From: an uncultured Lactobacillus sp.
Lineage (GTDB): Bacteria > Bacillota > Bacilli > Lactobacillales > Lactobacillaceae
Reading direction: 5' to 3'
Assembly (NCBI GenBank): GCA_910587695.1
Contig: CAJUNC010000011.1
Location: forward strand, 8,187 to 72,186
Length of the DNA: 64,000 nucleotides
The position numbers were made by a program, and so were the translations under genes. Under the pieces are notes generated by a model, which saw only the letters and a list, made by a program, of their open reading frames with translations, was not told the origin of the DNA and did not search any database. This document shows positions 2,575-64,000 of this stretch, one piece after another; positions within the stretch are counted from its first letter, which is position 1, and every line of letters starts with the position of its first letter.

Positions 2575-3462
2575 ATGAGTAATTTTATGTATCAAGCATT
2601 CAGCGAGGTCGCTAAGCAAAAAGCTTTTGTAACGGCAGCTAAAGTATTGAATGTGACACCATCAGCGATCAGTCATTCGATCAATGGCCTAGAAAAAGAG
2701 TTGGGTTTTGCACTATTTTTCCGTAATCGCAATGGAGTTCAATTGACCTCTGCTGGGGAAAAGATTTTACCGATCGTCCGTGAACTATTGAATACCGAAG
2801 ATAAGTTATTAGAAGAAGCCGCTCGGATCAACGGATTAGATCAGGGACGGTTGCGGATCGGGGCTTTCAGTAGTGTCTGTATCAATTGGCTCCCTGATAT
2901 GATCAACACCTTCAAGAAGAATTATCCCGAGATCGAAGTTTCAGTTTGGCAGGGAAACTTTAATGAAGTTATCCAACAGATCAAATTAGGTGAGATCGAT
3001 ATTGGTTTTTCCGCCCTACCGATCAAAGAGAATCTGGAAGTTTTACCGTTGTATCGAGATGAGATCTACTGTGTTGCGCCTGAAGGATTTACGCCACAGG
3101 ATAAAAAAGCCGTCGTGGCTAGTGATGTGGCGGATAAACCGTTTATTCTCCAAGAGATCGATTATGATCGTAATACTAAAGAAGCCTTGGATGATTATAA
3201 TGTTTCAGTCAATTCGATCCGATACAGTATCGATGATGCCTCGATCATTGCAATGGTCGAATCAGGACTTGGTTTTGGGATCTTACCGGAATTAGCTCTA
3301 CAAAAACTTTCAGGTAATGTCGTGCAGTATCCTTTTGCCAAGCGACATTTTCGGACAATTGCTCTAGTGACGCATAATAAAGCCCAGCAAACCCCTTCGA
3401 CAAGGGCTTTTATCCGAGTTATTATGGACTATTTAACAGAGCGTTATGGTGGTTTAGTGTAG
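2575..3462 (+). CDS. LysR-family transcriptional regulator
   Basis: N-terminal wHTH (VLNVTPSAISHSINGLEKELGFALFFRN) plus a LysR substrate-binding-length C-terminus. Confidence 0.85.
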   Translation: MSNFMYQAFSEVAKQKAFVTAAKVLNVTPSAISHSINGLEKELGFALFFRNRNGVQLTSAGEKILPIVRELLNTEDKLLEEAARINGLDQGRLRIGAFSSVCINWLPDMINTFKKNYPEIEVSVWQGNFNEVIQQIKLGEIDIGFSALPIKENLEVLPLYRDEIYCVAPEGFTPQDKKAVVASDVADKPFILQEIDYDRNTKEALDDYNVSVNSIRYSIDDASIIAMVESGLGFGILPELALQKLSGNVVQYPFAKRHFRTIALVTHNKAQQTPSTRAFIRVIMDYLTERYGGLV

Positions 3463-3591
3463 CGGATCACAGTAAGAATTGTTAAAATTTTTAAATAAAG
3501 TCAAATTTATGGACTAAGGTACTTGCATATAGCATTAAAGTTTGTTAATATTCATAGGACATTGCCAGGCAAAGTAGGTGAATATTAATCA

Positions 3592-3801
3592 ATGGAAACA
3601 AAATTAAAAGTTGGCGACAAAGTGACATGTGATAAATTTGCTTCATTGACGCATGATTTTGTCGGTGCGATCGAAAAGATCTATGAAAATTCTGCAGTTG
3701 TTGAGATCTTGGAACATCATAAAGATGATACCGTAGTTGTGAGCGATTTCCATAATCGTGCTGTAGTAGCTTTAGATCACATGAAAAAGAAGTCAGCATA
3801 A
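3592..3801 (+). CDS. Small YkvS-like (DUF2187-type) protein
   Basis: 69-aa ORF with a GTAGGTGA RBS. The KVGD...G.IEKIYENSAVVEI pattern resembles the YkvS family. Recalled from memory only. Confidence 0.5.
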   Translation: METKLKVGDKVTCDKFASLTHDFVGAIEKIYENSAVVEILEHHKDDTVVVSDFHNRAVVALDHMKKKSA

Positions 3802-3817
3802 AAATTCAAAAAAAAAG

Positions 3818-3846
3818 ATGACAAACGAAGATAAGGGTGCTATAAT
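3818..3846 (+). promoter_or_regulatory. Putative sigma-A promoter for tRNA-Gly (ATGACA - 17 nt - TGcTATAAT extended -10)
   Basis: ATGACA at 3818-3823, a 17-nt spacer, and TATAAT at 3841-3846 preceded by TGC. The tRNA 5' end is at 3860. Confidence 0.45.
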
Positions 3847-3859
3847 TATCTTTGTTGTT

Positions 3860-3930
3860 GCGGGTGTAGTTTAGTGGTAAAATCCCAGCTTCCCAAGCTG
3901 ATGTCGCGAGTTCGATTCTCGTCACCCGCT
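3860..3930 (+). tRNA. tRNA-Gly (anticodon CCC by my fold)
   Basis: Acceptor GCGGGTG pairs with CACCCGC. It has a GTTCGATTC T-arm and a TTCCCAA anticodon loop. No CCA is encoded. Confidence 0.85.
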
Positions 3931-3938
3931 TCAAAGAG

Positions 3939-3968
3939 CATCTTTGGTTTCGGCCGGAGATGTTTTTT
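3939..3968 (+). terminator. Rho-independent terminator after tRNA-Gly
   Basis: 9-bp stem (catctttgg / ccggagatg, two G-U pairs) followed by TTTTTT. Confidence 0.5.
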
Positions 3969-3974
3969 ATTTAA

Positions 3975-4190
3975 GTTAAGAAAACTCGATGATAGAAGAA
4001 AAGTAGCTTGTGGCAGCGTTAAGCGAGTCTGGGGTGGTGAAAGCCAGATCGTGTAAACAGGTGAAGCGCGCTTTTTAGAGTACAAGTGAATATTTGAGTG
4101 GATATTGATCAAATAGAGTGGTACCGCGGGAATTTCTCGTCTCTTGCAAAGTGTTATTTAACGCTATGCAAGGGACGTTTTTATTTTTAA
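3975..4190 (+). promoter_or_regulatory. T-box leader controlling argS
   Basis: Conserved T-box sequence AGAGTGGTACCGCGGGAA at about 4105-4125. A terminator hairpin (cgtctcttgca...tgcaagggacg plus a T-run) lies at 4137-4187. Stem I shows GGTGAAA and AGTA-like elements. The candidate specifier is CGC (Arg) at 4067-4069. Confidence 0.75.
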
Positions 4191-4201
4191 AGGAGGATAT
4201 A

Positions 4202-5902
4202 ATGATGAAGGACTACAAACAATTAGTGGCTCAAGCAGTATATGCAGCAGTTGATGGCCAATTAAGTGAAGAAGCGATCGTTGAAAAAATCGAACAACCA
4301 AAAGATCTCAAGCTAGGGGACTATGCTTTTCCAGCATTCGTATTGGCTAAGGTCTTGCGTAAAGCACCACAAATGATCGCGCAAGAATTGGTCGAAAAGA
4401 TCGATACGACTAATTTTGAAAAAGTTGAAGCTGTGGGACCTTACGTAAACTTTTTCCTAGATAAAGCAGCCTTTAGTGAGGATGTTTTGCATGATGTTTT
4501 GACTAAACAAGAACATTTTGGGGATGCAACGACTGGAAATGGCCGCCAAGTTCCGATCGATATGTCTTCGCCTAATATCGCTAAGCCAATGTCGATGGGC
4601 CACTTGCGTTCGACTGTGATCGGTAATTCGATCGCACTTTTAATGGAAAAATCTGGTTATAAACCGGTCAAGATCAACCACTTAGGTGACTGGGGCACAC
4701 AATTTGGTAAATTGATGCGCGCTTATGAACTTTGGGGAAGTGAAGAAGAAGTTAAAAATGATCCGATCAACTCCTTATTAGGCTATTATGTGCGTTTCCA
4801 CAAAGAAGACGTCGAAAATCCTCAATTAGACGATGAAGCCCGTGATTGGTTCAAACGTTTAGAAGATGGAGACAAAGAAGCGACTCGTCTTTGGAAATGG
4901 TTCCGTGAAGAATCACTTAAAGCTTTCACGACTGTCTATGATCGTCTAGGGATCGAATTTGATTCTTACAACGGTGAAGCTTTCTACAACGATAAGATGG
5001 ATGAAGTAGTCGAGATCTTAGAAGAAAAGGGATTATTAAAAGAAAGTCAAGGAGCTCAGATCGTGGATCTAGATGCCTACGATCTCAATCCAGCTTTGAT
5101 CAAAAAGACTGACGGAGCTACTCTTTATATCACGCGGGATCTAGCAGCGGCTATGTATCGTAAACGTACTTATGACTTTGCTCAATCCTTGTACGTCGTT
5201 GGTAATGAACAATCAAATCACTTCAAGCAATTGAAGGCAGTTTTAAAAGAAATGGGTTATGATTGGTCCGACGATATCCATCACATTCCATTTGGCTTGA
5301 TCACACAAGGTGGTAAGAAACTTTCTACACGTTCAGGCCGTGTCATTTTGTTAGAAAAAGTTTTGGATGATGCGGTCGCTTTGGCTAAAGCACAGATCGA
5401 AGCTAAAAATCCTAGCTTAGCCAATAAAGATCAAGTTGCTGAAGAAGTCGGTGTTGGTGCCGTAGTCTTCCATGACCTTAAGAATGAACGTTTGAATAAC
5501 TTTGACTTTGATTTAGAAGAAGTTGTGCGTTTTGAAGGCGAAACTGGTCCGTATGTTCAATACTCACATGCTCGTGCAATGAGCATTTTACGTAAAGCGG
5601 GTGTGACCAAGATCGATCCGGCTAAGGCATATGCAGTAACAGATGAAAATGCTTGGGAAACTTTGCGTCTATTAGGTGAATTCCCAGAAACTGTTGCCCG
5701 TGCAGTCACAGAATATGAACCATCTGTGATCGCTAAGTATGCGATCCATTTGGCAAAAGCCTTCAACAAGTACTATGCGCATTCTAAGATCTTGATCGAA
5801 GATGACCAATTAGAAGCACGTTTAGCTTTAGTAGCTAGCGTAGCTGATGTCTTAAAAGAAGCATTGCGCCTCTTAGGGGTAGCAGCTCCAGACGAAATGT
5901 AA
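4202..5902 (+). CDS. argS: Arginine-tRNA ligase
   Basis: Class I aaRS signatures ([16 protein letters not shown] = HIGH region) and an anticodon-binding C-terminus. The start was moved to the ATG at 4202 behind the AAAGGAGGA RBS, because the tracked 4118 start lies inside the T-box terminator. Confidence 0.93.
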
Positions 5903-5911
5903 TTTTTTAAA

Positions 5912-5944
5912 AGTCGATCGGCACAGTCTGATCGGCTTTTTTTA
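5912..5944 (+). terminator. Rho-independent terminator of argS
   Basis: 10-bp stem agtcgatcgg / ctgatcggct followed by a T-run. Confidence 0.6.
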
Positions 5945-6041
5945 TGAAATCACCGTTAGAAATAATTTATTGATAAATAAGTTTTGCTCTAGTTATTTAG
6001 TGATAAACTTGGTGCAACAAACAATAAGGGGGAGTTTCACG

Positions 6042-6776
6042 GTGAAGATCAACAATTATACCAAAAAAGAGGATTATGTTTTTGATCTGATTCAAAAAAT
6101 CGGAAATTTATCAGAAAAAGATCAAGAAAAATTTCGCACATCTTGTCGAGCAATGGTTTATGACTACAACGACATGTTGATGTTCAATGGATTTAAGGGT
6201 GAATTTGCTTGCTTTTTAGTCAGTGGGTTGGTGGCAAGCCGTTATTACAATTTTGAAAGTGATAAAGACCAATATATGACGTTTTACAAGCAACACGAGT
6301 TATTCTATCCCTCGCTTGAGGTATTTGATGAAGATCATACTGAAGAAGAACTGATCGTATTTTCGGATAAAGCGATCGTTATTGTCATTCCCGAAGGTAT
6401 TATGCATGAATATCGAGATAAGTCGCCTTGTTTCAATGAAATGTTACGCGAGCAGATGGCTTATCAATTGCAAAAAGAACGGATCTATAATATTTATTGT
6501 AATCTATCCTCGACAAGAGAACGGATCAAGAATACACTTTTCTACTTAGCTGTGCTCTATGGGAAGGTCACAGATGAGAACTGGGTCCGTTTGCCTCGGC
6601 GGATCGACCAAAATGTTTTAGCTTCTTATACCCGTGCATCTACGTCACTAGTCAACATGATCATCAAAGAATACTGCAATCAAGGATTGGCTAAACGGGG
6701 ACGGCGCAAATTACTGCTAGATCGTAAGCTAGTGATGGATTATGTCGCGAATACAGGTTTTAATGAGTTTAATTAA
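6042..6776 (+). CDS. Crp/Fnr-family transcriptional regulator (ArcR-like)
   Basis: C-terminal HTH region TRERIKNTLFYLAVLYG...VLASYTRASTSLVNMIIKEY is typical of Crp/Fnr. A GTG at 6042 behind AAGGGGGAG is preferred over the TTG at 5970. Confidence 0.7.
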   Translation: MKINNYTKKEDYVFDLIQKIGNLSEKDQEKFRTSCRAMVYDYNDMLMFNGFKGEFACFLVSGLVASRYYNFESDKDQYMTFYKQHELFYPSLEVFDEDHTEEELIVFSDKAIVIVIPEGIMHEYRDKSPCFNEMLREQMAYQLQKERIYNIYCNLSSTRERIKNTLFYLAVLYGKVTDENWVRLPRRIDQNVLASYTRASTSLVNMIIKEYCNQGLAKRGRRKLLLDRKLVMDYVANTGFNEFN

Positions 6777-6867
6777 ATTTTTGGTAGAGATCAAGTGAGC
6801 CTAATTTTGCTTGCTAGCAGAAGTTTGTTAAAATAGAGATACAATCTTTTATCTTGAGGTGATTTTT

Positions 6868-7335
6868 ATGAAAAAAGAAATGCGCCAAGGAAAGATCGAG
6901 CAGCTGATAAATCAGCAAATCATCTCTAATCAAGAAGAGTTGATGCAGGCATTGCAAGCGATCGGGATCAGTGCGACTCAAGCTACGATCTCACGAGACA
7001 TCCGTGAGATGCAGATCGTTAAACAGCAGGATGGTAATGGTAACTTGCGCTATGTGATCTTTAAAGCTAATAATCAATCTGAGCAAGATAAACTATATAA
7101 AGCTATTTCTGATGCAGTCACTGCGATCACGACTGTCGAGTTTATGAACGTGATCCATACGACACCACGAAATGCTAATGTTTTGGCAGCGATCTTGGAT
7201 GATTTAGCGCTACCTGAAGTTGCAGGTACTTTAGCTGGTTTTGACACGGTAGTTGTGATCAGTCCCTCACGCGAGTTAGCCATCAAACTGTATGAACTAT
7301 TTATGGAACATGTTGATCCAGATAATCTACTTTGA
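6868..7335 (+). CDS. argR: Arginine repressor
   Basis: The ArgR N-terminal wHTH is visible (R.GKIEQLI....I.NQEEL...L...GI.ATQATISRDI.E). ATG at 6868 behind GAGGTGA. Confidence 0.88.
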   Translation: MKKEMRQGKIEQLINQQIISNQEELMQALQAIGISATQATISRDIREMQIVKQQDGNGNLRYVIFKANNQSEQDKLYKAISDAVTAITTVEFMNVIHTTPRNANVLAAILDDLALPEVAGTLAGFDTVVVISPSRELAIKLYELFMEHVDPDNLL

Positions 7336-7477
7336 TAATTATTTCTTGAAAGGCCGTGACAGTTATGTTACGGTTTTTTAACTCGTTAAATAATATTAAA
7401 TTTTTTTCAAGTTTGGTGGAACTTAGTTGAGATGTGCTAAGATGATAATTAACGATAGTAGAAAAGGAATTTATGCG

Positions 7478-10120: not shown

Positions 10121-11068
10121 GTGTTAAAAAAATTATTTGATTATAAAGTTGATGAAAATTTAGAATTATTTGTATTGATCAAGTCAGCTGAAACGCGGAT
10201 CGCTAAGAATGGTAAAAAGTTTATTGCTTTTAATTTTGCTGATACCTCTGGTGTGATCAGTGCTAAATTTTGGGATGCTTCAGATGATGATATCAAGCGA
10301 TTTGAGGCGGGCAAAGTAGTTTGTTTGAAAGGCAAACGTGAAAATTATCAAAATAATCCCCAGATCAAGATCTTCAAGCTCCGGTTAGCTAATGCTGAAG
10401 AGCCAAATGATCCAGCACTTTATCTTCAAGCAGCACCAGAAAAGACACTTGTGATGGAAGAAGAACTGAATCAATATGTTTTTGAGATCGTTAATCCAAC
10501 GTGGAATCGGATCGTGCGTTATTTACTCAAAGAATACCATGATGAGTTCTTTAAATTTCCGGCTGCTAAATCCAACCATCATGCCTATGCGGGTGGCTTA
10601 GCATTCCATACATTATCGATCTTACGCTTGGCTAGATCGGTAACGGAACAATATGAAGAAGTTGATAAAGCATTACTTTATGCGGGAACTATTTTACATG
10701 ACCTAGGTAAGGTTTTAGAGTTGTCAGGGCCTGTAGCAACGACTTATACGCTAGCTGGCAATTTGATCGGGCATATCGTTTTGGTCGATGAAGAGATCGT
10801 TAAAGCTTGCGCAGTGTTAAAGATCGAGCTTGAAAGTGAAGATGCGATCTTATTGCGACACATGATCTTAGCACACCATGGATTATTGGAGTATGGTTCT
10901 CCAGTGCAACCACATTTGTTAGAGGCTGACATTTTACATCAATTAGATAATCTTGATGCTTCGATCCAAATGCTAAAGAAAAGTTTAGATCATACCGAGC
11001 CAGGAAATTTTTCAGAGCGTATTTTTGGGATGGATGGACGCAATTTCTATCAGCCTAAACAAAAATAG
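10121..11068 (+). CDS. yhaM: 3'-5' exoribonuclease YhaM (OB-fold plus HD domain)
   Basis: N-terminal OB-fold followed by HD-domain residues (HHAYAGGLAFH, ILHDLGK, LAHHG). Confidence 0.85.
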   Translation: MLKKLFDYKVDENLELFVLIKSAETRIAKNGKKFIAFNFADTSGVISAKFWDASDDDIKRFEAGKVVCLKGKRENYQNNPQIKIFKLRLANAEEPNDPALYLQAAPEKTLVMEEELNQYVFEIVNPTWNRIVRYLLKEYHDEFFKFPAAKSNHHAYAGGLAFHTLSILRLARSVTEQYEEVDKALLYAGTILHDLGKVLELSGPVATTYTLAGNLIGHIVLVDEEIVKACAVLKIELESEDAILLRHMILAHHGLLEYGSPVQPHLLEADILHQLDNLDASIQMLKKSLDHTEPGNFSERIFGMDGRNFYQPKQK

Positions 11069-11099
11069 TTGCCTTATAGTTCACTTTAAGGTTTATAGT
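11069..11099 (+). promoter_or_regulatory. MerR-type promoter with a 19-nt spacer (TTGCCT-19-TATAGT)
   Basis: TTGCCT at 11069-11074, a 19-nt spacer containing a CCTTA...TAAGG dyad, and TATAGT at 11094-11099. It lies just upstream of the tandem MerR genes. Confidence 0.4.
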
Positions 11100-11133
11100 T
11101 ACGATGAGAACTATAGATCAGGAAGTGAATTTT

Positions 11134-11508
11134 ATGTTGATCACACAAGTTGCTAGAAAGTATGGTTTAACTACAGATCAGATCAGACATTGGGAGCAAG
11201 CTGGTCTGTTGCCCCCCGTCAAACGAGATGAACAGGGCATAAAGCACTATGATCAAAGTGCCCAGTTATGGATCGAGTATGTAGATATGGCTTTAAATGC
11301 ACATATGACAAAGGAGTTTTTACAAGAATATGTTAAATTGGCTCAACTCGGTAAAGCTGCTAAGCCAGCACGAAAGCAATTTTTGGAAAGTTCATTAGCT
11401 AAAATAACAGCTAGTTGTCGTGAGCTTGCTAAAAAAGCAAAGTTCTTAGAGCAAACTTTACAACAAACAGAGGGGGACAGAGATGATGAATATCGCACAG
11501 GTCAGTGA
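11134..11508 (+). CDS. MerR-family transcriptional regulator
   Basis: N-terminal MerR HTH (ITQVARKYGLTTDQIRHWEQAGLLPPVKRDEQG.KHY). The ATG at 11134 is preferred because the predicted TSS lies downstream of 11104. Confidence 0.75.
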   Translation: MLITQVARKYGLTTDQIRHWEQAGLLPPVKRDEQGIKHYDQSAQLWIEYVDMALNAHMTKEFLQEYVKLAQLGKAAKPARKQFLESSLAKITASCRELAKKAKFLEQTLQQTEGDRDDEYRTGQ

Positions 11509-11887
11509 AAAATTTGATATTACCAAAGAGACTTTGCGCTATTGGGAAAGATTGAGATTACTACCTGAGATCCCACGTAATGAGAGTGGTTATCGTGACT
11601 ATGGAGAGTATGAATTGAATTGGGTATTCTTTATTTTGGTCATGCGCAAAGCTGGAGTATCGATCGAAGCACTAGTTGAATTTGTTGAGCTATATCGCTT
11701 AAAAACTGATACGCGAGCTGCCCAAAAACAATTACTTGTCGAACAACGTGATAAATTGGAACAACAAAAGCGCGAGATCGAAAAAACTTTGAATTATTTA
11801 AATTACAAGTTAGATAATTTTGAAAGTCATGTGTTAAACTATGAAATTGAAAAATTACATTACAAAATAGATAAGAAAGATCAATGA
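11483..11887 (+). CDS. MerR-family transcriptional regulator (paralogue, overlaps the previous gene by 26 nt)
   Basis: MerR HTH (IAQVSEKFDITKETLRYWERLRLLPEIPRNESGYRDY) with a coiled-coil C-terminus. Confidence 0.75.
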   Translation: MMNIAQVSEKFDITKETLRYWERLRLLPEIPRNESGYRDYGEYELNWVFFILVMRKAGVSIEALVEFVELYRLKTDTRAAQKQLLVEQRDKLEQQKREIEKTLNYLNYKLDNFESHVLNYEIEKLHYKIDKKDQ

Positions 11888-11893
11888 GGTCAT

Positions 11894-12493
11894 ATGGCAA
11901 AAAAACATTTTTATGCAATAAAAAACACGGGTAAAATTTATCGCTCTTGGGCAAAATGCCAAACAGCACTTAAAAAAGTCAAAGCACCTGTATTCAAGGG
12001 CTTTGCCACTGAAGCGGAAGCCAAGGCATTTTTAGCGGGGCAAAGTCCAACTGAAAGTTTACCAAATGAAAGTATTTTTGTCGATGGTAGTTTTAATGCG
12101 GATAAGGCGATCGTAGGGGGCGCTTTTGTACTAGTAAAAGATGATAAAAGTGTTCATGAACAAATGATCCGAGATGATAAGCATACTGAGATCTTGCGTT
12201 TACGCAATGTCGGAGGCGAATTGTTAGCTACGATCTATGCATTAAAGTATGCATTATCGCTTGGAATGAAAGAAGTTACGATCTGTCATGATTACCAAGG
12301 GATCGCTAGCTGGGCAGATGGTTCTTGGCAAGCCAAACAAGATATTACTAAACGTTATGCTACATTTGTTAAGCAAGTTATCACAAAAGATGGATTGCAG
12401 GTCCATTTTCAAAAGATCTCAGCTCATACTGGAGTAAAATTCAACGAACGGGCTGATCAACTAGCTAAACAAGCTGCAGGGATAGCTGTTTGA
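11894..12493 (+). CDS. Type 1 RNase H with N-terminal hybrid-binding (caulimovirus VI-like) domain
   Basis: The N-terminus FYAIKNTGKIYRSWAKCQ...GFATEAEAKAFL matches the HBD pattern. Candidate catalytic residues are in VDGSF, GGELLA, HDYQG and NERADQLAK. Confidence 0.8.
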   Translation: MAKKHFYAIKNTGKIYRSWAKCQTALKKVKAPVFKGFATEAEAKAFLAGQSPTESLPNESIFVDGSFNADKAIVGGAFVLVKDDKSVHEQMIRDDKHTEILRLRNVGGELLATIYALKYALSLGMKEVTICHDYQGIASWADGSWQAKQDITKRYATFVKQVITKDGLQVHFQKISAHTGVKFNERADQLAKQAAGIAV

Positions 12494-12498
12494 GCGCA

Positions 12499-12527
12499 AA
12501 AGAAGCTATATCAGGCTTCTTTTTTTA
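12499..12527 (+). terminator. Rho-independent terminator (plus-strand unit)
   Basis: agaagc...gcttct stem followed by a T-run. Confidence 0.5.
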
Positions 12528-12531
12528 TACT

Positions 12532-12560
12532 AAAAAAGCTACCTACATTTCGTAGGTAGC
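12532..12560 (-). terminator. Rho-independent terminator of prsA
   Basis: gctacctac / gtaggtagc stem. The A-run on the plus strand is a T-run on the minus strand. Confidence 0.55.
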
Positions 12561-12575
12561 CGTGAAAATAAAAAC

Positions 12576-13472
12576 CTATTTTGAGCTTGAGCTAGATGAA
12601 GAAGAAATGTAATCGGATAAGACATCTTTCAAGTCACTGTCTTTGATGTTTACATTACCTTCTTTGAATTCTTTAGCAATGATCTTTTGTAATGCAGTTG
12701 AATCATTTAGTTTTTCATCAATGATTTGATCTTTCAATTCTTTTGTATGGTCAGCCATTTTGCCTTTACCAGGGTTCTTGATACTATAGATGACATGGTA
12801 ACCATAGCTTGTCTTAACAGGTTCTTGTGAGAATTCACCTTGTTTCAAAGCAAATGCAGCTTTCTTGAAGTCACTGTCAAGAGAAGTATCCATGTTATTG
12901 AATGAAGGTAACTTACCACCATCATTCTTAGTAGATTCATCGATCGATTTTTCTTTAGCTAACTTCTTGAAGTTGTCCCAAGAGCCATCTTTTTTCAATT
13001 CTTCAATGATCGCATCAGCGTCTTCTTTCTTAGATACTAAGATCTGTGCGACTGTGATCGTTGGTTCATAGCTCTTCCATTGTTTCTTTAAGTCGGCATT
13101 AGTGATCTTAGTATTAGCGATCACAGCTTGACGTAGCAGTAAGTTAGAACGAATGCTCTTCTTAAATGCTGAAGCTGTCATACCATTTTGCGCTAAAACA
13201 GTTGAGAAAGAAGAACCATATTGTTTTTTATACTTATTGTATTCTTTGTTAACGGCTTTATCAGTGACTTTATCACCATACTTGCCTTCTAAGATCTTAT
13301 CTAAGATCATTTGTTGTAAGACTTGCTTACCTGAAGTAGTCTTTTTCATGCTGTCGTAGTATTGGCTTTCGGTGATCTTACCACCTGATGTTGTTGCAAC
13401 TGTCTTAGATGAACAAGCTGCTAAGGTGAAAGTCAACAAGACGCCGGCTAAAGCGGCAAACCATTTTTTCAT
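12576..13472 (-). CDS. prsA: Foldase lipoprotein PrsA (parvulin-type PPIase)
   Basis: Signal peptide and lipobox [22 protein letters not shown], with the parvulin core (GYHVIY). The start is set at the ATG at 13472. The protein ends in a poly-Ser tail. Confidence 0.88.
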
Positions 13473-57332: not shown

Positions 57333-57417
57333 GCGTTTGAGGTGCAAGTGATCGATAAACTATGTGTGAAATAGCTGGGAAGTAATAAAAATTTAAAATA
57401 TCTATAATATATTTATT

Positions 57418-57446
57418 GCCGTAGCTGATCTAGCTGCGGCTTTTTT
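57418..57446 (+). terminator. Rho-independent terminator of the PTS operon
   Basis: gccgtagct / agctgcggc stem followed by TTTTTT. Confidence 0.6.
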
Positions 57447-57480
57447 AAAAAAGGCGTCATTTTCAACTTTTGACGCCTAA
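57445..57480 (-). terminator. Hairpin terminator downstream of the recombinase gene (contains the left inverted repeat)
   Basis: aggcgtca / tgacgcct stem. The A-run on the plus strand is a T-run on the minus strand. Confidence 0.5.
57452..57468. repeat. Left copy of the 17-bp perfect inverted repeat AGGCGTCATTTTCAACT
   Basis: It is the exact reverse complement of 58167-58183. Confidence 0.9.
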
Positions 57481-57509
57481 TGATTCACCCCATATTATAC
57501 ATAATAAAG

Positions 57510-58106
57510 CTAGTCAAAATCAATTTTATCTAGGATGTTTTCACGGGTAGTTTGATCGATCCCTAGATAATGTAAAGTTGATTGTTGGCTACTATGATTT
57601 AATAATTGCATAACAAAACCGATATCAAAGTTAGTTTGTTGGTAGACAAAATACGCACCTGTTTTCCGCATTGTATGTGTACCTAAGTAATCGATACCTA
57701 AGAGATCGCCTGTTTTAGCCATGATCTTATAGTATTGTTTACGTGTCAAATGTTTGGCTGGGTCAGTAAAAGATGGGAAAAGCCAGACTGATTCGATCTG
57801 TTGGTCTTTTAACCAGAGGCGATAATCTTTAAGATCTTGTGTTACTGGCTTTAAATAAATAGTATTTGGCTTATTAGTTTTCTGATCATAGATATGAGTT
57901 CTCATCTTTACTTGTCCATTTTTGTTATAAACATCTGAATATTTTAGTGATAAAACATCACTTACTCGTAATAATGTAGCTTTACCTACTTGAAAAATAG
58001 TATAGTTACGACGCCCTGCTCGGAAATGCTCAAGTAGGGTCTTTTTTACTTGAGAAAGTACGATTTTATTTTTGATCGGTTGTACAGTATAGAATTTGTG
58101 TTCCAT
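57510..58106 (-). CDS. Short tyrosine recombinase (catalytic domain only, 198 aa)
   Basis: Catalytic residues are recognisable: R in ATLLRVSDVL, HxxR in GTHTMRKTG, H in LLNHSS and the Y nucleophile in TLHYLG. There is no N-terminal core-binding domain. Confidence 0.85.
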   Translation of the reverse strand: MEHKFYTVQPIKNKIVLSQVKKTLLEHFRAGRRNYTIFQVGKATLLRVSDVLSLKYSDVYNKNGQVKMRTHIYDQKTNKPNTIYLKPVTQDLKDYRLWLKDQQIESVWLFPSFTDPAKHLTRKQYYKIMAKTGDLLGIDYLGTHTMRKTGAYFVYQQTNFDIGFVMQLLNHSSQQSTLHYLGIDQTTRENILDKIDFD

Positions 58107-58166
58107 AGCTCAGTCCCCCTCATTCATAGGATTTAGATAGTTATCGTACCATTTTTATAACCATTA

Positions 58167-58183
58167 GTTGAAAATGACGCCTG
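58167..58183. repeat. Right copy of the 17-bp perfect inverted repeat (AGTTGAAAATGACGCCT)
   Basis: It is the exact reverse complement of 57452-57468. Confidence 0.9.
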
Positions 58184-58197
58184 TAATAAGTATTAAA
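58169..58197 (+). promoter_or_regulatory. Putative promoter of the RM-like operon (TTGAAA-17-TATTAA), with the -35 inside the right inverted repeat
   Basis: Hexamers at 58169-58174 and 58192-58197 with a 17-nt spacer. Confidence 0.3.
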
Positions 58198-58227
58198 TGA
58201 TGATCTAAAAGTGATGGAGGAACTTAA

Positions 58228-59103
58228 GTGGATGATTTTTATGAGAGAAATAGTATACGAGAAAAATTCCCGAAGATCTTAGATATTTTATTACTAGATA
58301 GAACTAGATCAACTACTAGATCTCATCAAAATATAATTTGGGCAAATAGTAATTATCGAAGTAAAGGTAAAGCATATTCTCAAACTTCTCAGATAAAATC
58401 GAGTCTAATAACGGGAAAAATGAAAGACGTTATTAGATCAAGAGCATTTAAATCAAAAGATATTCAAAAAGCTAGGACAAAGCAAAAGGCTGAGGTTTTT
58501 ACACCTACTTGGGTGATCAAACAACAGATCGATGAAGTAAGTACTGCTCAGCGAGATGATCTAGATAGTCATATAAAAATAAAGTGGTTAGAAATAGCTT
58601 GTGGTGAAGCGCCTTATATCACTACTAGATATGATATGAAAACAGGAAAATTTATTGAAGTATCTAAACGAGTAGGTGTCTTAGATCGAAAACTGAAGAT
58701 GGTAAATGAAAAGATAGCTGGATTTTTAGCTTGGCAAAATGCTGTTGAATTGGCATATAAAACGATTTATGGCTTTGAGTGGAATGGTGATTCATTGCTA
58801 CTTGCTCGTGAAAATTTACTGTATACATATATCGAAAATTATGTATTTAAGTGGCAAGTTTATCCTGATGAAAAATCTCTTGAGAAGATAGCAGTCATTA
58901 TCAGCTATAACATCTTTCAAATGGATGGTCTGAAATATATTATTCCACTTTCTGAAAAGAAAGAAAAAATTCACAGTGGTCAGCTATCATTATTCGATGA
59001 TCCAGAGCCAACACAATGGATCATTAAAAAAGGGATCAGGGTAAAAGTTATGAACTGGGAAAAAAATAAAATGGAATTTTTTGATAAAGGGATCGGTGAA
59101 TAA
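58228..59103 (+). CDS. N6-adenine-methyltransferase-like protein lacking a recognisable (D/N)PP(Y/F) motif
   Basis: AEVFTPTWVIKQ resembles motif X (xxFxTP). WLEIACGEAPYI resembles a degenerate motif I (EPxCGxGxF). YGFEWNGDSLLLAREN resembles motif II/III. The position where NPPY is expected reads IISYNIFQMD. GTG start 6 nt after GGAGGA. Confidence 0.6.
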   Translation: MDDFYERNSIREKFPKILDILLLDRTRSTTRSHQNIIWANSNYRSKGKAYSQTSQIKSSLITGKMKDVIRSRAFKSKDIQKARTKQKAEVFTPTWVIKQQIDEVSTAQRDDLDSHIKIKWLEIACGEAPYITTRYDMKTGKFIEVSKRVGVLDRKLKMVNEKIAGFLAWQNAVELAYKTIYGFEWNGDSLLLARENLLYTYIENYVFKWQVYPDEKSLEKIAVIISYNIFQMDGLKYIIPLSEKKEKIHSGQLSLFDDPEPTQWIIKKGIRVKVMNWEKNKMEFFDKGIGE

Positions 59104-59104
59104 G

Positions 59105-62100
59105 ATGGACAAGACAAAAGTGCAAACGACAAAGACGATATATCCACAAATTTACGCTTATATTTTACCTGAGATCAAACGTAAACGAGGATGGATAAAA
59201 ATCGGGTACACTGAAAAGAAAAATGTAGATGAGAGAATACAAGAACAAACCAAGACAGCAGATGTGGAATATCAAAAACTTTGGTCAGCTCCTGCAAAAT
59301 TCAATCAAAAAGATAGGTGGTTCAAAGACCATCAATTTCATGCATATTTAGAAAAATATAAGCATATAAGAAAACAAACTGGACATGAATGGTTTTATTA
59401 CAACGGGACCCCGACTAGATCTTGGGAAGATTACAAAGATTACATCGATCTGGATCTTGAACAAGCAAAAGAAGAATTAACATACACTCTTAGGTCTGAG
59501 CAAAAAAGAGCCGTTGAAAAGACATTAAAATATGCAAAAGAGCATCCACAAGGAGAATTTTTGTGGAATGCTAAACCAAGATTTGGAAAGACATTGACCA
59601 CATATGATCTGGCTTTGAGATTAAAAGCAAAGACTGTTTTAGTGGTGACCAATCGACCGGCGATAGCAACGTCATGGTTTGATGATTTTGAAAGATTTAT
59701 TGCCTGGCAGACAGATTATAAATTTATTTCCAACTCAAGTAGTTTAAAACATCGAGCGATCATGAGTAGAGAGGACTATCTTGCTAGTTTGGGGGATGAA
59801 AAAGGCGCTCAGATAACATTTGTTTCCCTTCAGGATCTAAAAGGGGCTAAAAGTTTTGGGGGTGTCCATGAAAAACTTGATTGGATCGCAGATCTAAAAT
59901 GGGATATGTTAGTGATAGATGAAAGTCATGAAGGCATTGCTACGTTAAAAACAGATATTGCTTTTGATAATATCAAGCGCAAGTTCACGTTGTATTTGTC
60001 AGGGACTCCTTTTAAGGCACTCGCATCTGGAAAGTTTAAAGACGATCAGATCTACAATTGGACATATGCCGATGAACAAAAAGCAAAAGCAAACTGGCAA
60101 GATGTTGAGCAAAATAATCCATATTCAGATCTGCCTCGGCTGAATCTTTTTTCATATCAAATGAGCCCGATGATCACAGAAAAAATTGAGCAAGGGGCAC
60201 AAATAGATGGTAAAAATATGGATTATGCTTTTGATTTAAATGAGTTCTTTGCAACTAAAGATAATGGAGATCTTGTCTATAAAAAACAAGTGCTGAAATG
60301 GTTAGATACTCTGGCAAAAAACGAAAAGTACCCATTTTCAACGCCTGAATTGCGGACCGAGTTAAAGCACACATTTTGGATCTTGGATCGGGTAGCGAGT
60401 GCTAAAGCTTTAATGAAACTACTAAAAAAGCATGAAGTATTTAAAGATTATAAGATCGTTTTGGCAGCTGGTGATGGTAAAGTGACAGACGACCAAAAAA
60501 TAAATGAGAGCTCCTTAACTAGGGTAAAAGAAGCTATTCGTAAAAATGATAAAACGATCACATTATCAGTGGGACAATTAACAACTGGGATAACTGTACC
60601 AGAGTGGACTGCTGTATTGATGCTCTCGAATATGAGATCACCTAGTCTTTATATGCAGGCCGCTTTTAGGGCACAAAATGCGTGGCGTTACGAAGAAAAT
60701 GGTTTGTCCAAACGTAAAGAAAATGCCTATGTCTTTGATTTTTCACCAGAACGTACGTTGATGATCTATGATGAATTTGCTAACAACTTATCTAATAGAT
60801 CATCTGAGGTTTTAGATGTTGATAAACGCCAAAGGAAGATCAGACAATTATTGAATTTCTTTCCTGTGATCGCTGAAGATAGTACAGGTAAGATGACAGA
60901 ACTCGATGCAAAACAGGTGCTGACGATGCCTAAAGTACTGAAAGCAAAAGAAGTTGTAAAACGAGGCTTTATGTCCAATTTCTTGTTTAAAAATATATCG
61001 GGTATTTTTTCTTCCCCAGAGGCTAAAGAGATCTTAGAAGACCTAAATCCACTACCTAAAAATAAAAATGTTCCTCAAAATAATCGTGTAAAAGTCGACA
61101 CAAAAGAAATTGAGTTGGATGAAAATGGAGCAGTAAAGATTCGTCCGGAGATAGTCATTGGTGAAAATAAAGCACACTTTGGAGAAAAGGTATATAAAGA
61201 AATGGAAGAAGAGATCGAGAATTCGGAAAGTGCCAAACTCCAAACGTTAGCTAGTCAGATATTTAAAAAGCGTACATTAGAAGCAACTAAAGCTCTAGCA
61301 AAAGAAAAGGGATTGACGACTAAACAAGCAGAGAAGATCACAAACTTAGGAGCTAAAGCAGTGGCGCGTGAGGTAGAAGAGATCCAAATAAAAAATAATA
61401 TCAGAAAAAATAAGGTGAAAAAAGAATTTGAATTACGCAAAGCTGAGGCACAGCTGGATAGCAAAGCCTTGCAAAAGATCGAAGAGCAGTTACAACAAAA
61501 AATTCAAAAAGTAGAAAGCGAAGTTGTTACACAAGTTAAAGAGACTTTACAAAAGTATACGCTAAATTCTACTGAGAAGATCATGCAAAAGGTGCAAAAA
61601 AAAGATAAACAGCAAGTAGAAGACGATGTGCGCTCACGTTTGCGCGGTTTTGCTAGAACGATCCCTTCATTTTTGATGGCTTATGGGACAGAGAATACCA
61701 CATTAGCTAATTTTGATAAAAATATCTCAGATACAGTATTCAAGGAAGTGACAGGGATCTCACTTGAACAATTTAGAGTATTACGGGATAAGTATCGCTT
61801 TTTTGACGAAATCGTGTTTGATGAGTCGATCCAAGCTTTTTTAGCTAAGAGAAAGGAGTTAGCTAACTACTTTGATGAAAATTTAAAGGAAGATATCTTT
61901 AGCTATATTCCCCCACAAAAGACTAATCAGATCTTTACGCCAAAAGAGACAGTCAAACTGATGGTAGCTGAATTGCAAAAAGAAGAGCCAAACATTTTTA
62001 GTGATCCTGATAAAACATTTGCGGATCTATATATGAAATCTGGGTCATATATTACTGAGATCGTCAAACGCTTATATATTGGGTTGGCAGATGTAATACC

Positions 62101-62338
62101 AGATCAAAACAAGCGGATCAAGCATATCTTAGAAGAGCAAGTTTATGGTTTTGCTCCAACGGAGATCATTTATCGGATAGCTCACAATTATATCTTTGGT
62201 TTTTATGATGAAGTTGATAAGATCGATGATTCACATATCGTTTTACTAGATACGACTTCATTTGCTTGCAATGAAGCTAGCGGTAGTTTAGCTGAAAAAT
62301 GTGATGAATTATTTGGAGGAAGTAAAGATGAAATTTGA
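59105..62338 (+). CDS. Fusion protein: T5orf172/GIY-YIG-like head, SF2 helicase (type III-res/DEAH-like), K/E-rich helical spacer, methyltransferase N-lobe (motifs X, I, II/III)
   Basis: Head: YAYILPE...GWIKIGYTE...DERI...GHEWFY. Helicase: motif I AKPRFGKT (59570-59593), motif II MLVIDESHEG (about 59903-59935), motif III LSGTP and a motif VI-like QAAFRAQN. The C-terminus has IFTPKETVKLMV (motif X), FADLYMKSGSY (motif I-like) and VYGFAPTEI. The ORF stops before any NPPY. Confidence 0.75.
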   Translation: MDKTKVQTTKTIYPQIYAYILPEIKRKRGWIKIGYTEKKNVDERIQEQTKTADVEYQKLWSAPAKFNQKDRWFKDHQFHAYLEKYKHIRKQTGHEWFYYNGTPTRSWEDYKDYIDLDLEQAKEELTYTLRSEQKRAVEKTLKYAKEHPQGEFLWNAKPRFGKTLTTYDLALRLKAKTVLVVTNRPAIATSWFDDFERFIAWQTDYKFISNSSSLKHRAIMSREDYLASLGDEKGAQITFVSLQDLKGAKSFGGVHEKLDWIADLKWDMLVIDESHEGIATLKTDIAFDNIKRKFTLYLSGTPFKALASGKFKDDQIYNWTYADEQKAKANWQDVEQNNPYSDLPRLNLFSYQMSPMITEKIEQGAQIDGKNMDYAFDLNEFFATKDNGDLVYKKQVLKWLDTLAKNEKYPFSTPELRTELKHTFWILDRVASAKALMKLLKKHEVFKDYKIVLAAGDGKVTDDQKINESSLTRVKEAIRKNDKTITLSVGQLTTGITVPEWTAVLMLSNMRSPSLYMQAAFRAQNAWRYEENGLSKRKENAYVFDFSPERTLMIYDEFANNLSNRSSEVLDVDKRQRKIRQLLNFFPVIAEDSTGKMTELDAKQVLTMPKVLKAKEVVKRGFMSNFLFKNISGIFSSPEAKEILEDLNPLPKNKNVPQNNRVKVDTKEIELDENGAVKIRPEIVIGENKAHFGEKVYKEMEEEIENSESAKLQTLASQIFKKRTLEATKALAKEKGLTTKQAEKITNLGAKAVAREVEEIQIKNNIRKNKVKKEFELRKAEAQLDSKALQKIEEQLQQKIQKVESEVVTQVKETLQKYTLNSTEKIMQKVQKKDKQQVEDDVRSRLRGFARTIPSFLMAYGTENTTLANFDKNISDTVFKEVTGISLEQFRVLRDKYRFFDEIVFDESIQAFLAKRKELANYFDENLKEDIFSYIPPQKTNQIFTPKETVKLMVAELQKEEPNIFSDPDKTFADLYMKSGSYITEIVKRLYIGLADVIPDQNKRIKHILEEQVYGFAPTEIIYRIAHNYIFGFYDEVDKIDDSHIVLLDTTSFACNEASGSLAEKCDELFGGSKDEI

Positions 62339-63392
62339 TATAGTTATTGGAAATCCGCCTTATCAAGAAAATGACAATGGAAAGCGCGATGATGGAGCAG
62401 CTAATGCATCTGCAAGCCCGATATATAACCATTTCTTTTATTTAGCAAGAGAAGTGGCACTAAAAAAAGTGAATCTTATTTTTCCAGCAAGATGGCTCAA
62501 TGGGGCAGGAAAAGGCTTAGGTGATTTTAGGCGAGATATGTTACAAGATCAACATATTAGATCCATGTCAGTATTTAAAAATGCAAGTATGTTATTTCCA
62601 AATACCGATATAAAAGGTGGAGTCTTGTATTTGACTTATGACAAAGAATATATCGGACCTGCCGATATCAGTGTTATCGATCATGACAAACAGCGATACG
62701 AGTTTAAGAGTTATTTAAATTCGGCTGGTTCAGGCGTATTTATTCCTTATGGTGAATTGGTAAGCATTTTTGAAAAGGTCTCGAAAGTAGCAGATATAGA
62801 TAAAAATAACATTCAATCTATAACTTCAGGATTAAAACCATATGGATTAAGAACAGATTTTTTTAAAGATCCATATAAATATAATCTCCCACCAATTTTT
62901 GGTACACCACAAAGCGCAGATGATATTGAAATTATAGGTTTGGATAGAATGAAAAGGATGAGTAGATATATATCAAAAGATTATCCACTTCCTAAAGGTA
63001 AAGAAACTATTGCTGAGTGGAAAGTATTTGGACCGTACGCCTATGGTTCAGGAGAATTTGGCGAATGCGTATCAGAGTTACTTATAGGGAGACCTGGTCA
63101 AATTTCGACCGAAACGTTCTTAGTGTTTGGACCGTTTGATTCGGAATATGAAGCAAACGCATTTAAAAAATATTTTTATACCAAATTTTTTAGAGCATTG
63201 GTGGGAATTTTAAAAACTACTCAGCATAGTACTACAACGTATGGCTTTGTACCACTTCAAGACTTTACCAAAAATTCAGATATAGATTGGTCGCTGAGTA
63301 TTTCAAAGATCGATCAACAATTATATGAAAAATATGGACTAGATCAAGAAGAGGTCGATTTCATCGAAAGTAAGGTCAGATCTATGGAATAG
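62328..63392 (+). CDS. Methyltransferase C-lobe starting at motif IV (FDIVIGNPPYQ) plus a specificity (TRD)-like C-terminal domain; Eco57I-type
   Basis: MKFDIVIGNPPYQ lies at the extreme N-terminus. The ATG at 62328 sits 7 nt after GGAGGA and overlaps the upstream ORF by 11 nt. The C-terminal LYEKYGLDQEEVDFIE tail is typical of Eco57I/TaqI-like TRD ends. Confidence 0.75.
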   Translation: MKFDIVIGNPPYQENDNGKRDDGAANASASPIYNHFFYLAREVALKKVNLIFPARWLNGAGKGLGDFRRDMLQDQHIRSMSVFKNASMLFPNTDIKGGVLYLTYDKEYIGPADISVIDHDKQRYEFKSYLNSAGSGVFIPYGELVSIFEKVSKVADIDKNNIQSITSGLKPYGLRTDFFKDPYKYNLPPIFGTPQSADDIEIIGLDRMKRMSRYISKDYPLPKGKETIAEWKVFGPYAYGSGEFGECVSELLIGRPGQISTETFLVFGPFDSEYEANAFKKYFYTKFFRALVGILKTTQHSTTTYGFVPLQDFTKNSDIDWSLSISKIDQQLYEKYGLDQEEVDFIESKVRSME

Positions 63393-63523
63393 TGAGCTTC
63401 TTCAGGCAAAATATCTTGGTGAAGGCTACTTGATCCTAGTTATTTTATTCTCCAGTTCAAATTTCTGATAAATTACTGACAAAGTAAAATAGTTCTATGA
63501 TCAATGTTGCCTGAGGATAGGAT

Positions 63524-63572
63524 TTTATCGCTCGTTTATCGCTAATTTATCGCTCGTAAAATGAGCGATAAA
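63524..63572. repeat. Three 11-bp-phased direct copies of TTTATCGCT plus one inverted copy (AGCGATAAA)
   Basis: Direct copies at 63524-63532, 63535-63543 and 63546-63554. The inverted copy is at 63564-63572. Confidence 0.8.
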
Positions 63573-63729
63573 CTGTTCCTTGGAGCATGAAAATATAAAT
63601 ACTACAGTAACTGCTAAACTGATCCAAAAGTCAATAGCAACAGCACGCAAGCATTTAGCTAAATTTGTAAGTTTAGGTCTTTTAGTGGCACAAGGAAGTA
63701 ATAAAAATCGCAGTTATCATAAGGTGTAG
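63565..63729 (+). pseudogene. Startless remnant of a C-terminal winged-helix domain gene (Fic/ATPase-associated wHTH-like)
   Basis: The frame reads ...TAKLIQKSIATARKHLAKFVSLGLLVAQGSNKNRSYHKV*, with no start codon after the upstream in-frame stop at 63562-63564. Confidence 0.35.
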
Positions 63730-63826
63730 AAGTACCCAGTTCAAATTTTAGAATTTCTGATAAATTAATGTTATAGTAAATAATGTAGAAACATTCTAAT
63801 TTATTTTGTCTTGGGAGGAATTTTAC

Positions 63827-64000
63827 ATGAAGTATGGAGAAACAAAGAAAGTTTTGAACCAACTTGTAGCAGATTTGAGCCAAATGTCGATGGTCATTCA
63901 TCAAACACATTGGTATATGCGTGGCACCAACTTTTTGAAGTTACACCCATTGATGGATGAATTTATGGATGAGATCAATGATCAACTCGATGTGATCTCA
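63827..64000 (+). CDS. dps: Dps-family DNA-protecting ferritin-like protein (3' end beyond the window)
   Basis: [46 protein letters not shown]... is the conserved Dps helix A/B region. GGGAGGA RBS. The ORF runs off the window, so it is absent from the ORF track. Confidence 0.88.

Follow-up and report, generated by a model that had tools for sequence, protein, structure and literature searches.

We analysed a 64,000-nucleotide stretch of DNA (hereafter the window) from an uncultured Lactobacillus sp. (assembly GCA_910587695.1, contig CAJUNC010000011.1, positions 8,187 to 72,186 of the forward strand), which carries a predicted restriction-modification (RM) islet made of a tyrosine recombinase gene on the minus strand (57510-58106) and three closely packed open reading frames (ORFs) on the plus strand. 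ORF1 (58228-59103, 291 amino acids) has the features of the N-terminal half of an Eco57I-class methyltransferase, with motifs X, I, II and III and without motif IV. ORF2 (59105-62338, 1077 amino acids from its ATG) combines a head, a motor, a spacer and a second methyltransferase N-half, and ORF3 (62328-63392, 354 amino acids) has the methyltransferase C-half, a variable target recognition domain (TRD) and a conserved C-terminus. A single nucleotide separates the ORF1 stop codon from ORF2, ORF2 and ORF3 overlap by 11 nucleotides, and a GGAGG box (GGAGGAAG), a Shine-Dalgarno sequence, lies 8 nucleotides before the ATG of ORF3. The islet is flanked upstream by a sigma-54-regulated phosphotransferase system (PTS)/MupG operon and downstream by dps, which starts at 63829, and the G+C content decreases from 0.40-0.45 outside to 0.32-0.37 across it. 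A preliminary description of this DNA, made from the sequence alone, had given the positions of the genes, the gap, the overlap and the motifs, all of which we found where it placed them, and had rightly put the islet between housekeeping-type loci.

A catalogued family of restriction-modification enzymes

ORF2 is 60.3% identical, over 98% of its length, to PpeRS5ORF3P, one of its best plasmid-encoded matches, which is encoded on plasmid pRS5 of Pediococcus pentosaceus (coding sequence 3111-7364). By this homology, the window locus is predicted to encode an ATP-dependent RM system that falls in the RFGKT branch of the LlaGI-like (Type ISP-like) enzymes. Smith et al. 2009 listed, in their Table 1, 14 "LlaGI-like" helicase-containing RM enzymes from REBASE with an RFGKT Walker A motif, PpeRS5ORF3P included, and LlaBIIP, Lbr367ORF22P and Sth1066ORF1376P are other members of the subgroup (PMC2790903). 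A companion paper of 2009 stated that the RFGKT group "will be considered elsewhere" (PMC2790908), and the sole later mention that we found is a single sentence published in 2018 (PMC5861437). These mentions of 2009 and 2018, the only ones found in the literature on RFGKT, record the Walker A motif and report no experiments; nothing was found in the literature on LlaBII/pJW565. The family is therefore catalogued but, as far as the literature shows, uncharacterised, and it is not a new defence system. The proposal of a new defence family made in the preliminary description is not supported, as shown by the 60% identity with PpeRS5ORF3P, by the REBASE listing of the RFGKT enzymes, by the PADLOC matches given below and by the existence of at least 8000 relatives of ORF2. 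The latter are spread over many phyla, with lactic acid bacteria, Moraxella, Saccharibacteria and Planctomycetes among their hosts, and many are plasmid-borne.

The window and pRS5 loci have the same Walker A motif, an ORF1-like gene upstream of the enzyme and a small recombinase (62% identical between the two). They differ in that PpeRS5ORF3P is fused in one chain of 1417 amino acids and the pRS5 recombinase gene lacks flanking inverted repeats, whereas the window enzyme is split and its recombinase gene has such repeats. Compared with the published subgroup, ORF2 thus has the Walker A motif and the homology to a named member, but in place of a single polypeptide of more than 150 kDa there are two chains of 1077 and 354 amino acids.

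The preliminary description had also suggested a search with PADLOC, in which all three proteins matched RM models. ORF1 matched MTase_II (3e-75), residues 289-607 of ORF2 aligned with positions 336-675 of REase_MTase_IIG (PDLC03626, 1359 positions; 3.2e-17), and ORF3 aligned with positions 1011-1359 of the same model (6.6e-40). PADLOC assigns the family to a Type IIG model in this way, but classical Type IIG enzymes such as Eco57I and MmeI have no NTPase motor and the superfamily 2 (SF2) helicase motifs I, II, III and VI of ORF2 are intact. ORF1, ORF2, ORF3, the motor alone, the joined methyltransferase and the family profiles had no meaningful match among the chains of the PDB (phmmer against all chains, none at E<=10; profile search, none at E<=1), which presumably included LlaBIII. 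Because no sequence relation to any solved structure is detectable, the RFGKT family is an analogue of LlaGI and LlaBIII in layout, and not a close relative.

Some members of the family, or relatives of it, have unusual organizations. A distant branch in Lactococcus cremoris plasmid p1196B (locus L102, 2730-7100; 33% identity) encodes a fused enzyme of 1456 amino acids whose very N-terminus matches DUF4145, not T5orf172, and it has kept the upstream gene for an N-half methyltransferase of 230 amino acids. A 31-33% identical relative on a Variovorax plasmid (L103, 2157-6971) has another gene order: a small hypothetical gene, a 498-residue Eco57I methyltransferase and an 834-residue "GIY-YIG nuclease family protein", with a gene for a 405-residue integrase adjoining. 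Finally, in one sample of the sister lineage L104 (L105, 7574-10811), the ORF2 homologue is broken into pieces of 831 and 242 amino acids, with its neighbours intact.

A methyltransferase split between genes

The methyltransferase N-half of ORF2 (61892-62323, plus strand) includes the motifs QIFTP, FADLYMKSGSY and YGFAPTE, and the NPPY motif lies at the beginning of ORF3 (62352-62363, plus strand; IGNPPYQ at residues 7-13). ORF3 matches the Pfam profile Eco57I (PF07669) at 1.5e-19. When the last 237 residues of ORF2 are joined to ORF3 this match grows from profile positions 73-169 to positions 1-169, and from 71 to 81.5 bits, which places the break within a single catalytic domain, immediately ahead of motif IV. 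A complete gamma-class domain (motifs X, I-VIII and NPPY) is obtained only when the C-terminus of ORF2, or ORF1 in the fused relatives, is joined to ORF3. In an alignment of 18 sequences, the split proteins all end at the same residue and the fused ones read through it. We surveyed 80 family loci from contigs representing one genome per species: ORF2 and ORF3 were fused in 39, split in 26 and incomplete in 15, and the split junctions were mostly overlaps of 1 or 4 nucleotides. The split is a stable gene arrangement, not the result of decay. The continuity of the Eco57I profile over the junction bears out the earlier view of a gamma-class N6-adenine methyltransferase interrupted before motif IV with its TRD in ORF3, and the Type ISP-like order of nuclease, SF2 motor, methyltransferase and TRD proposed at that time stands as well.

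The middle of ORF3 is variable across homologues, as expected of a TRD. The sister lineage L104 carries the islet at the same chromosomal site, where identity with the window is 84% for the recombinase, 73% for ORF2, 65% for ORF1 and 41% for ORF3. Since ORF3 is far less identical than its neighbours, the comparison suggests replacement of the ORF3 cassette between the two lineages.

ORF1 and its probable partners

ORF1 lacks an [NDS]PP[YFW] motif and has no match in Pfam. Yet an ORF1-like gene lies immediately upstream in all 54 of the non-Saccharibacteria loci for which upstream DNA was available, and Saccharibacteria have a more weakly matching copy, in which the EVFTP and FEPTCGNGNFL motifs are canonical. 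The nature of the protein can be read from its homologues. The shorter upstream proteins of Enterococcus faecalis pL8 and of p1196B align with residues 81-229 of ORF1 (E 2e-11 and 5e-17, respectively) and match only the first third of the Pfam profiles N6_Mtase and MmeI_Mtase, the part with motifs X and I-III (N6_Mtase positions 20-120). A profile search identified 1714 relatives of ORF1 among 1.84 billion cluster representatives, and the best 150 of them comprise 98 proteins with ORF1 alone, 41 in which it is fused to an ORF3-like module and 11 other fusions. The ORF1::ORF3 fusions have NPPY at the junction: P0365 (651 amino acids) aligns with the whole of ORF3 at 2e-51, with an Eco57I match that spans the junction, and in P0366 the match covers profile positions 5-171. 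In four loci with such a fusion the next gene is a full homologue of ORF2 (AKPRFGKT, DEAH, QIFTP), which stops at the split point, lacks NPPY and is not followed by an ORF3.

The family thus occurs in three permutations, ORF1|ORF2|ORF3, ORF1|ORF2::ORF3 and ORF1::ORF3|ORF2, and every locus examined has two N-halves for one C-half/TRD, except one (L031) with two extra ORF3-like cassettes. These results identify ORF1, at the level of sequence, as the N-terminal half of an Eco57I-class methyltransferase whose C-half and TRD would be provided by ORF3. Because ORF3 is fused to ORF2 in some relatives and to ORF1 in others, the gene-fusion evidence suggests that ORF3 works with both partners. The two N-halves differ at motif II, where ORF1 has YGFE (YG[FY][ED] in about 125 of the 150 relatives) and ORF2 has YGFAP. 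ORF1 has kept the acidic residue of this motif, which, going by gamma-class methyltransferases in general, favours ORF1 as the half that binds S-adenosylmethionine (AdoMet) and the half in ORF2 as a docking module. The preliminary description was right that ORF1 is methyltransferase-related and without NPPY, but its fusion to an ORF3-like module in 41 of 150 relatives does not fit the idea of an extra, accessory pseudo-enzyme. The NCBI label "restriction endonuclease" carried by ORF1 homologues is supported by no profile or fold result.

Two observations concern these modules in other contexts. The exceptional locus, in a Holophagaceae metagenome-assembled genome, has a fused ORF2::ORF3 followed by the two additional cassettes (10363-11442 and 11626-12672), which may be spare specificity modules. 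One relative of ORF1, P0368 (819 amino acids), has the ORF1-like domain behind a McrBC-family region (PF10117), so the half-methyltransferase module is also found in other restriction contexts.

The head, motor and spacer of ORF2

The N-terminal head of ORF2 (59153-59404, plus strand; residues 17-100) contains the motifs GWIKIGYT, ERI and HEWFY and, in isolation, matches T5orf172 (PF10544) with 26.8 bits, above the gathering score of 20. PF10544 matches all 19 homologous heads, 13 of which are also matched by MUG113, and residues Y17, Y19, Y35, R44, H79 and E95 are invariant across phyla. An AlphaFold2 model of residues 1-125 (predicted local distance difference test score, pLDDT, 84.7) has the order beta-beta-alpha-beta-alpha-beta-alpha. 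Its comparison with BFVD gave probability 1.0 and template modelling (TM) scores of 0.5-0.59 for many viral models of T5orf172, MUG113 and "nuclease" proteins. The head is thus assigned by profile to T5orf172, a domain of the GIY-YIG superfamily, and the preliminary description, which had called it T5orf172/GIY-YIG-like and had proposed profile, AlphaFold and Foldseek searches as a check, is borne out by the PF10544 matches and by the invariant residues. T5orf172 domains are part of this superfamily, and the T5orf172 protein Gp88 of ICP1 is an active nuclease (PMC8263062). We infer that the head of ORF2 cuts DNA.

The remaining parts of ORF2 were also as described before. The SF2 helicase-like motor (59483-61024, plus strand; ResIII, 2.1e-16) has the Walker A motif AKPRFGKT (59570-59593, plus strand; residues 156-163), DESH (59918-59929, plus strand; residues 272-275), SGTP and QAAFRAQN; AKPRFGKT and the other motor motifs are invariant across the 18 aligned homologues. 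The same alignment delimits a helical spacer (61172-61624, plus strand; about residues 690-840) that is rich in lysine and glutamate and poorly conserved.

Inversion of the segment with the recombinase gene

The recombinase (198 amino acids) matches Phage_integrase (PF00589) at 1.7e-18. Against the FimB and FimE models NF007370 and NF007371 it scores 28 and 23 bits, for cut-offs of 221 and 222, which places it outside these subfamilies. Its gene lies between two inverted repeats (IRs) of 24 nucleotides that are 88% complementary, IR-L (57445-57468) and IR-R (58166-58189), the latter ending 39 nucleotides before ORF1. They share an exact core of 17 nucleotides (AGGCGTCATTTT; 57452-57468 in IR-L), and an exact inverted match of this length was found in 0.8% of shuffles. 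The repeats delimit a segment of 697 bp (57469-58165) with the recombinase gene and two candidate promoters. In two other loci (L005 and L007) this segment is present as the exact reverse complement, with 0 mismatches, in an otherwise identical locus, and the crossover maps inside the 17-nucleotide core; downstream of the segment, the islet in L005 is 100% identical to that of the window. Contigs encoding an identical MupG protein have the recombinase gene on either strand, and three other contigs end at or just within the segment. The 697-bp segment inverts in nature.

The sequence from IR-L to the ORF3 stop (57448-63391) forms a conserved unit, which is found with 71% identity in another genomic context in lineage L096. 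L096 and L104 both retain the IR core. The repeats of the L104 lineage measure 26 nucleotides and are 96% complementary, and all seven of its contigs have the recombinase gene directed towards ORF1. Outside Lactobacillus lineages L004-L015, L096 and L104 the association of recombinase and RM genes disappears: none of 80 other family loci has a homologue of the recombinase within 6 kb, which led us to reject a general partnership between the two. Inverted repeats are also absent around the homologous recombinases of pRS5 and of the E. faecalis chromosome. For these reasons, the recombinase is a locally recruited invertase, neither a component of the family nor the integrase of the islet. The earlier claim of a recombinase dedicated to the islet fails on the same counts, the two orientations of the segment and the 80 loci without a homologue.

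The putative promoters of the segment might explain the role of its inversion. A candidate outward promoter (57494-57523, minus strand; TTGATT, 18 nucleotides, TATAAT) lies near the 3' end of the recombinase gene. In the window it is directed towards a hairpin (AGGCGTCA...TGACGCCT; 57446-57478, minus strand; -17.2 kcal/mol) that is followed by U6 in this orientation only; in L005 the 3' tail is GUAAUAAG in place of UUUUUU. The window would thus represent an OFF or low state, since transcripts from the promoter meet the hairpin and U6 there. In the inverted form, exemplified by L005, the promoter faces ORF1 from 88 nucleotides upstream. The hairpin stem is conserved in L096 and L104, as are TTGATT and TGTATAAT, whereas the neighbouring non-coding DNA has diverged. 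A candidate promoter of the recombinase gene itself, an extended -10 element (TGnTACGAT; 58143-58151, minus strand) also predicted from the sequence, lies inside the segment, and this block is conserved in L096 and L104. These observations make it probable that the RM genes are under ON/OFF control by an invertible promoter borne with the recombinase.

Comparison with known systems

LlaGI and LlaBIII, the Type ISP enzymes, are both plasmid-borne in lactic acid bacteria and have the same order of nuclease, SF2 motor, coupler, gamma-class N6-adenine methyltransferase and TRD. However, their nuclease is of the Mrr-type PD-(D/E)xK kind, their Walker A motif is GTGKT and they are single chains without a partner, whereas the window family has a T5orf172 head, an RFGKT Walker A motif and two or three chains, with ORF1 obligatory. 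Type ISP enzymes are further defined by translocation driven by ATP and by cleavage that depends on collision. The ORF1::ORF3|ORF2 permutation resembles Type III RM systems, in which a Mod-like methyltransferase with the TRD accompanies a TRD-less, Res-like helicase-nuclease. In Type III enzymes such as EcoP15I, though, the nuclease of Res is a C-terminal PD-(D/E)xK domain, Mod is of the beta class and Res has no methyltransferase half. Eco57I-type systems have in common with the window a PF07669 methyltransferase and a two-gene logic, with a methyltransferase and a nuclease-methyltransferase fusion. An ATPase motor is lacking in Eco57I, whose proteins are each equipped with an entire methyltransferase and TRD, in contrast to the single C-half/TRD that serves two N-halves in the window. 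Assembly of a catalytic domain from two separately encoded chains is known from the C5-cytosine methyltransferases M.AquI and M.EcoHK31I, which have a single pair of halves without alternative partners.

The arrangement of the switch is like that of Hin in Salmonella, a serine recombinase whose gene lies inside the invertible H segment together with an outward promoter. In type and size the recombinase is closer to FimB and FimE of Escherichia coli, tyrosine recombinases of about 200 amino acids that are encoded outside fimS. Known invertible RM switches mostly act by shuffling Type I hsdS genes (PMC7672463, PMC9881135), whereas the target here would be the RM operon. Finally, the DnmA (YeeA)-YeeB-YeeC operon of Bacillus subtilis encodes a T5orf172 protein and an SF2 helicase along with an N6-methyladenine methyltransferase (PMC9973331). 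These are three separate whole proteins in another order, and the likeness lies in the domain set.

A proposed three-subunit enzyme behind a probable switch

Taken together, our results point to an ATP-dependent RM system with three subunits, which belongs to the RFGKT, Type ISP-like lineage and is probably turned ON and OFF by a recombinase-borne invertible promoter; we assign this explanation a probability of about 0.6. According to this model, ORF1 and ORF3 would reconstitute a Mod-like N6-adenine methyltransferase, whose TRD would read an asymmetric site and protect the host DNA. ORF2 would be the Res-like subunit and would use its own N-half, which is probably degenerate, to dock on ORF3; where the DNA is unmethylated, ORF2 would translocate at the expense of ATP and cut with its GIY-YIG-type head. 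Because ORF3 would be shared by methylation through ORF1 and restriction through ORF2, it might act as an exchangeable specificity cassette. In the window orientation the outward promoter would run into the hairpin and U6, leaving the RM genes off or low, and in the inverted orientation it is predicted to read into ORF1-3 and turn them on.

As far as we found in the literature, the subunit logic, the head domain and the self-contained invertible switch are new. The three gene permutations offer, as they stand, a genetic argument about the fit of the subunits, and suggest a compact way for methylation and restriction to share a specificity. If active, the head nuclease would be the first of the GIY-YIG type on an RM enzyme that translocates. 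The switch, an invertase within its own inverton, measures about 0.75 kb and moves with the RM genes. For the methylomes and phage resistance of gut lactobacilli, it implies that a culture may mix ON and OFF cells. More speculatively, the T5orf172/RFGKT enzymes may be a distinct class between Type ISP and Type III, with the ORF3 cassette completed by ORF1 and held by the pseudo-half of ORF2, the whole unit being in some Lactobacillus a portable phase-variable defence cassette with its own invertase and promoter. We regard this broader view as possible rather than likely; if it is true, methylation and restriction always share one specificity, and the swap of one small gene re-targets both.

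Several points weigh against the three-subunit switched system. We found no characterised member of the family, and no enzymology, methylome or phage data for any member. The AdoMet-binding half was assigned from motifs only. The structural model of ORF1 retrieved nothing significant from the PDB with Foldseek (best DrdV, E 0.73, and BrxX, E 1.8), a profile comparison of ORF1 with ORF2 aligned only 20 columns at motif X with a probability of 0.3%, and in the fused ORF2::ORF3 relatives a free ORF1 would have no obvious access to a C-half. The best match of the head model in the PDB, the GIY-YIG catalytic domain 7wme, is not significant (E 2.3). Promoter, terminator and ON/OFF polarity are consensus-level predictions, and a weak promoter-like site (TTGAAA, 17 nucleotides, TATTAA; 58168-58196, plus strand) spans IR-R and is present in both orientations. 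This site is not conserved in L096 and may or may not give basal expression of the RM genes.

An alternative, which corresponds to the layout of the preliminary description, is that ORF2 and ORF3 alone form a complete Type ISP-like enzyme, in which the N-half of ORF2 binds AdoMet and ORF1 is a non-catalytic accessory protein such as a regulator, an AdoMet sensor or an inhibitor. The Eco57I profile is indeed continuous over the C-terminus of ORF2 and ORF3, which are one polypeptide in 39 of the 65 complete loci, and ORF1 lacks both motif IV and a significant methyltransferase fold match. Such an enzyme is nevertheless unlikely, because ORF1 is universally retained, the acidic residue of motif II is found in ORF1 and not in ORF2, and the ORF1::ORF3 fusions are common, with an ORF2 that has no C-half of its own.

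It is less probable still that the locus is a phasevarion and not a restriction system, with an active methyltransferase, a T5orf172 head that only binds DNA and a motor that remodels. Pfam describes T5orf172 as DNA-binding, but the residues at the GIY-YIG catalytic positions and all the motor motifs are invariant across phyla. The presence of an ON/OFF switch would suit a phasevarion, and the DnmA-YeeB-YeeC operon, with the same domain set, has no demonstrated role in restriction (PMC9973331). Yet the family resembles RM systems in being spread by plasmids and horizontal transfer, and its TRD module diversifies.

The recombinase might instead be the integrase of the islet, with the inversion being incidental and a pair of direct repeats representing the attachment (att) sites. 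An exact repeat of 15 nucleotides (GGAAGTAATAAAAAT) is present at 57378-57392, about 55 nucleotides outside the conserved unit, and at 63694-63708, and a match of this length between the two flanking intergenic regions was found in 0.02% of Markov shuffles (P about 2e-4); the low G+C content of the islet and the plasmid association of the recombinase's relatives point in the same direction. However, the ends of the inversion coincide exactly with the inverted repeats on either side of the recombinase gene, the conserved unit extends no further than IR-L and the ORF3 stop and does not reach the direct repeats, and the 80 other loci are devoid of a recombinase homologue within 6 kb. The left repeat is absent from L104, which carries the islet at the same site, and 12 of the 15 nucleotides of the right copy are native dps-upstream sequence in that lineage. 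Furthermore, no empty insertion site was found among the contigs with an identical MupG protein, all of which carried the islet. We consider this explanation very improbable. The direct repeats that the preliminary description had taken as the bounds of the unit are real, but their role as islet boundaries is not supported, as the unit extends from 57448 to 63391 and the left copy is missing in L104.

Finally, the ORF2/ORF3 split could be a frameshift pseudogene of a single-chain enzyme, as the reading frame of fused homologues continues across this point, but we rejected this reading as having a negligible probability: a split at the same residue, with translational coupling, is seen in 26 of the 65 complete loci, the junction is 100% identical in L005 and has a Shine-Dalgarno sequence before the ORF3 ATG, and the ORF1::ORF3 loci keep an ORF2 that ends at the same point.

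Flanking DNA

On the left, the PTS/MupG operon is closed by a terminator-like hairpin (57418-57440, plus strand) whose 10-bp stem has 6 G-C pairs and precedes a T6 run. Neither tRNA genes nor Rfam families were identified between 56000 and 64000.

The right end has several small features. An array of TTATCGCT (63524-63572, plus strand), with three direct copies and one inverted copy that make a 12-bp hairpin, might serve as the terminator of the operon or as a site for protein binding. In L104 the array (11833-11880) directly follows the ORF3 stop, and the window has about 130 bp inserted between the two. A direct repeat of 29 nucleotides (63460-63488 and 63752-63780, 86% identical) corresponds to part of the dps upstream region duplicated after ORF3, which points to a more complex insertion history at this end. 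The right copy of the 15-nucleotide repeat lies inside a short open frame (63598-63729, plus strand) whose product ends in ...TAKLIQKSIATARKHLAKFVSLGLLVAQGSNKNRSYHKV before the stop codon and resembles the C-terminal helix-turn-helix of a lost gene. Just past dps, beyond the end of the window in the same genome (L004, 18181-18788), there is a gene for a PemK-family toxin with a small upstream partner, followed by further small ORFs; this whole region may be more accessory DNA.

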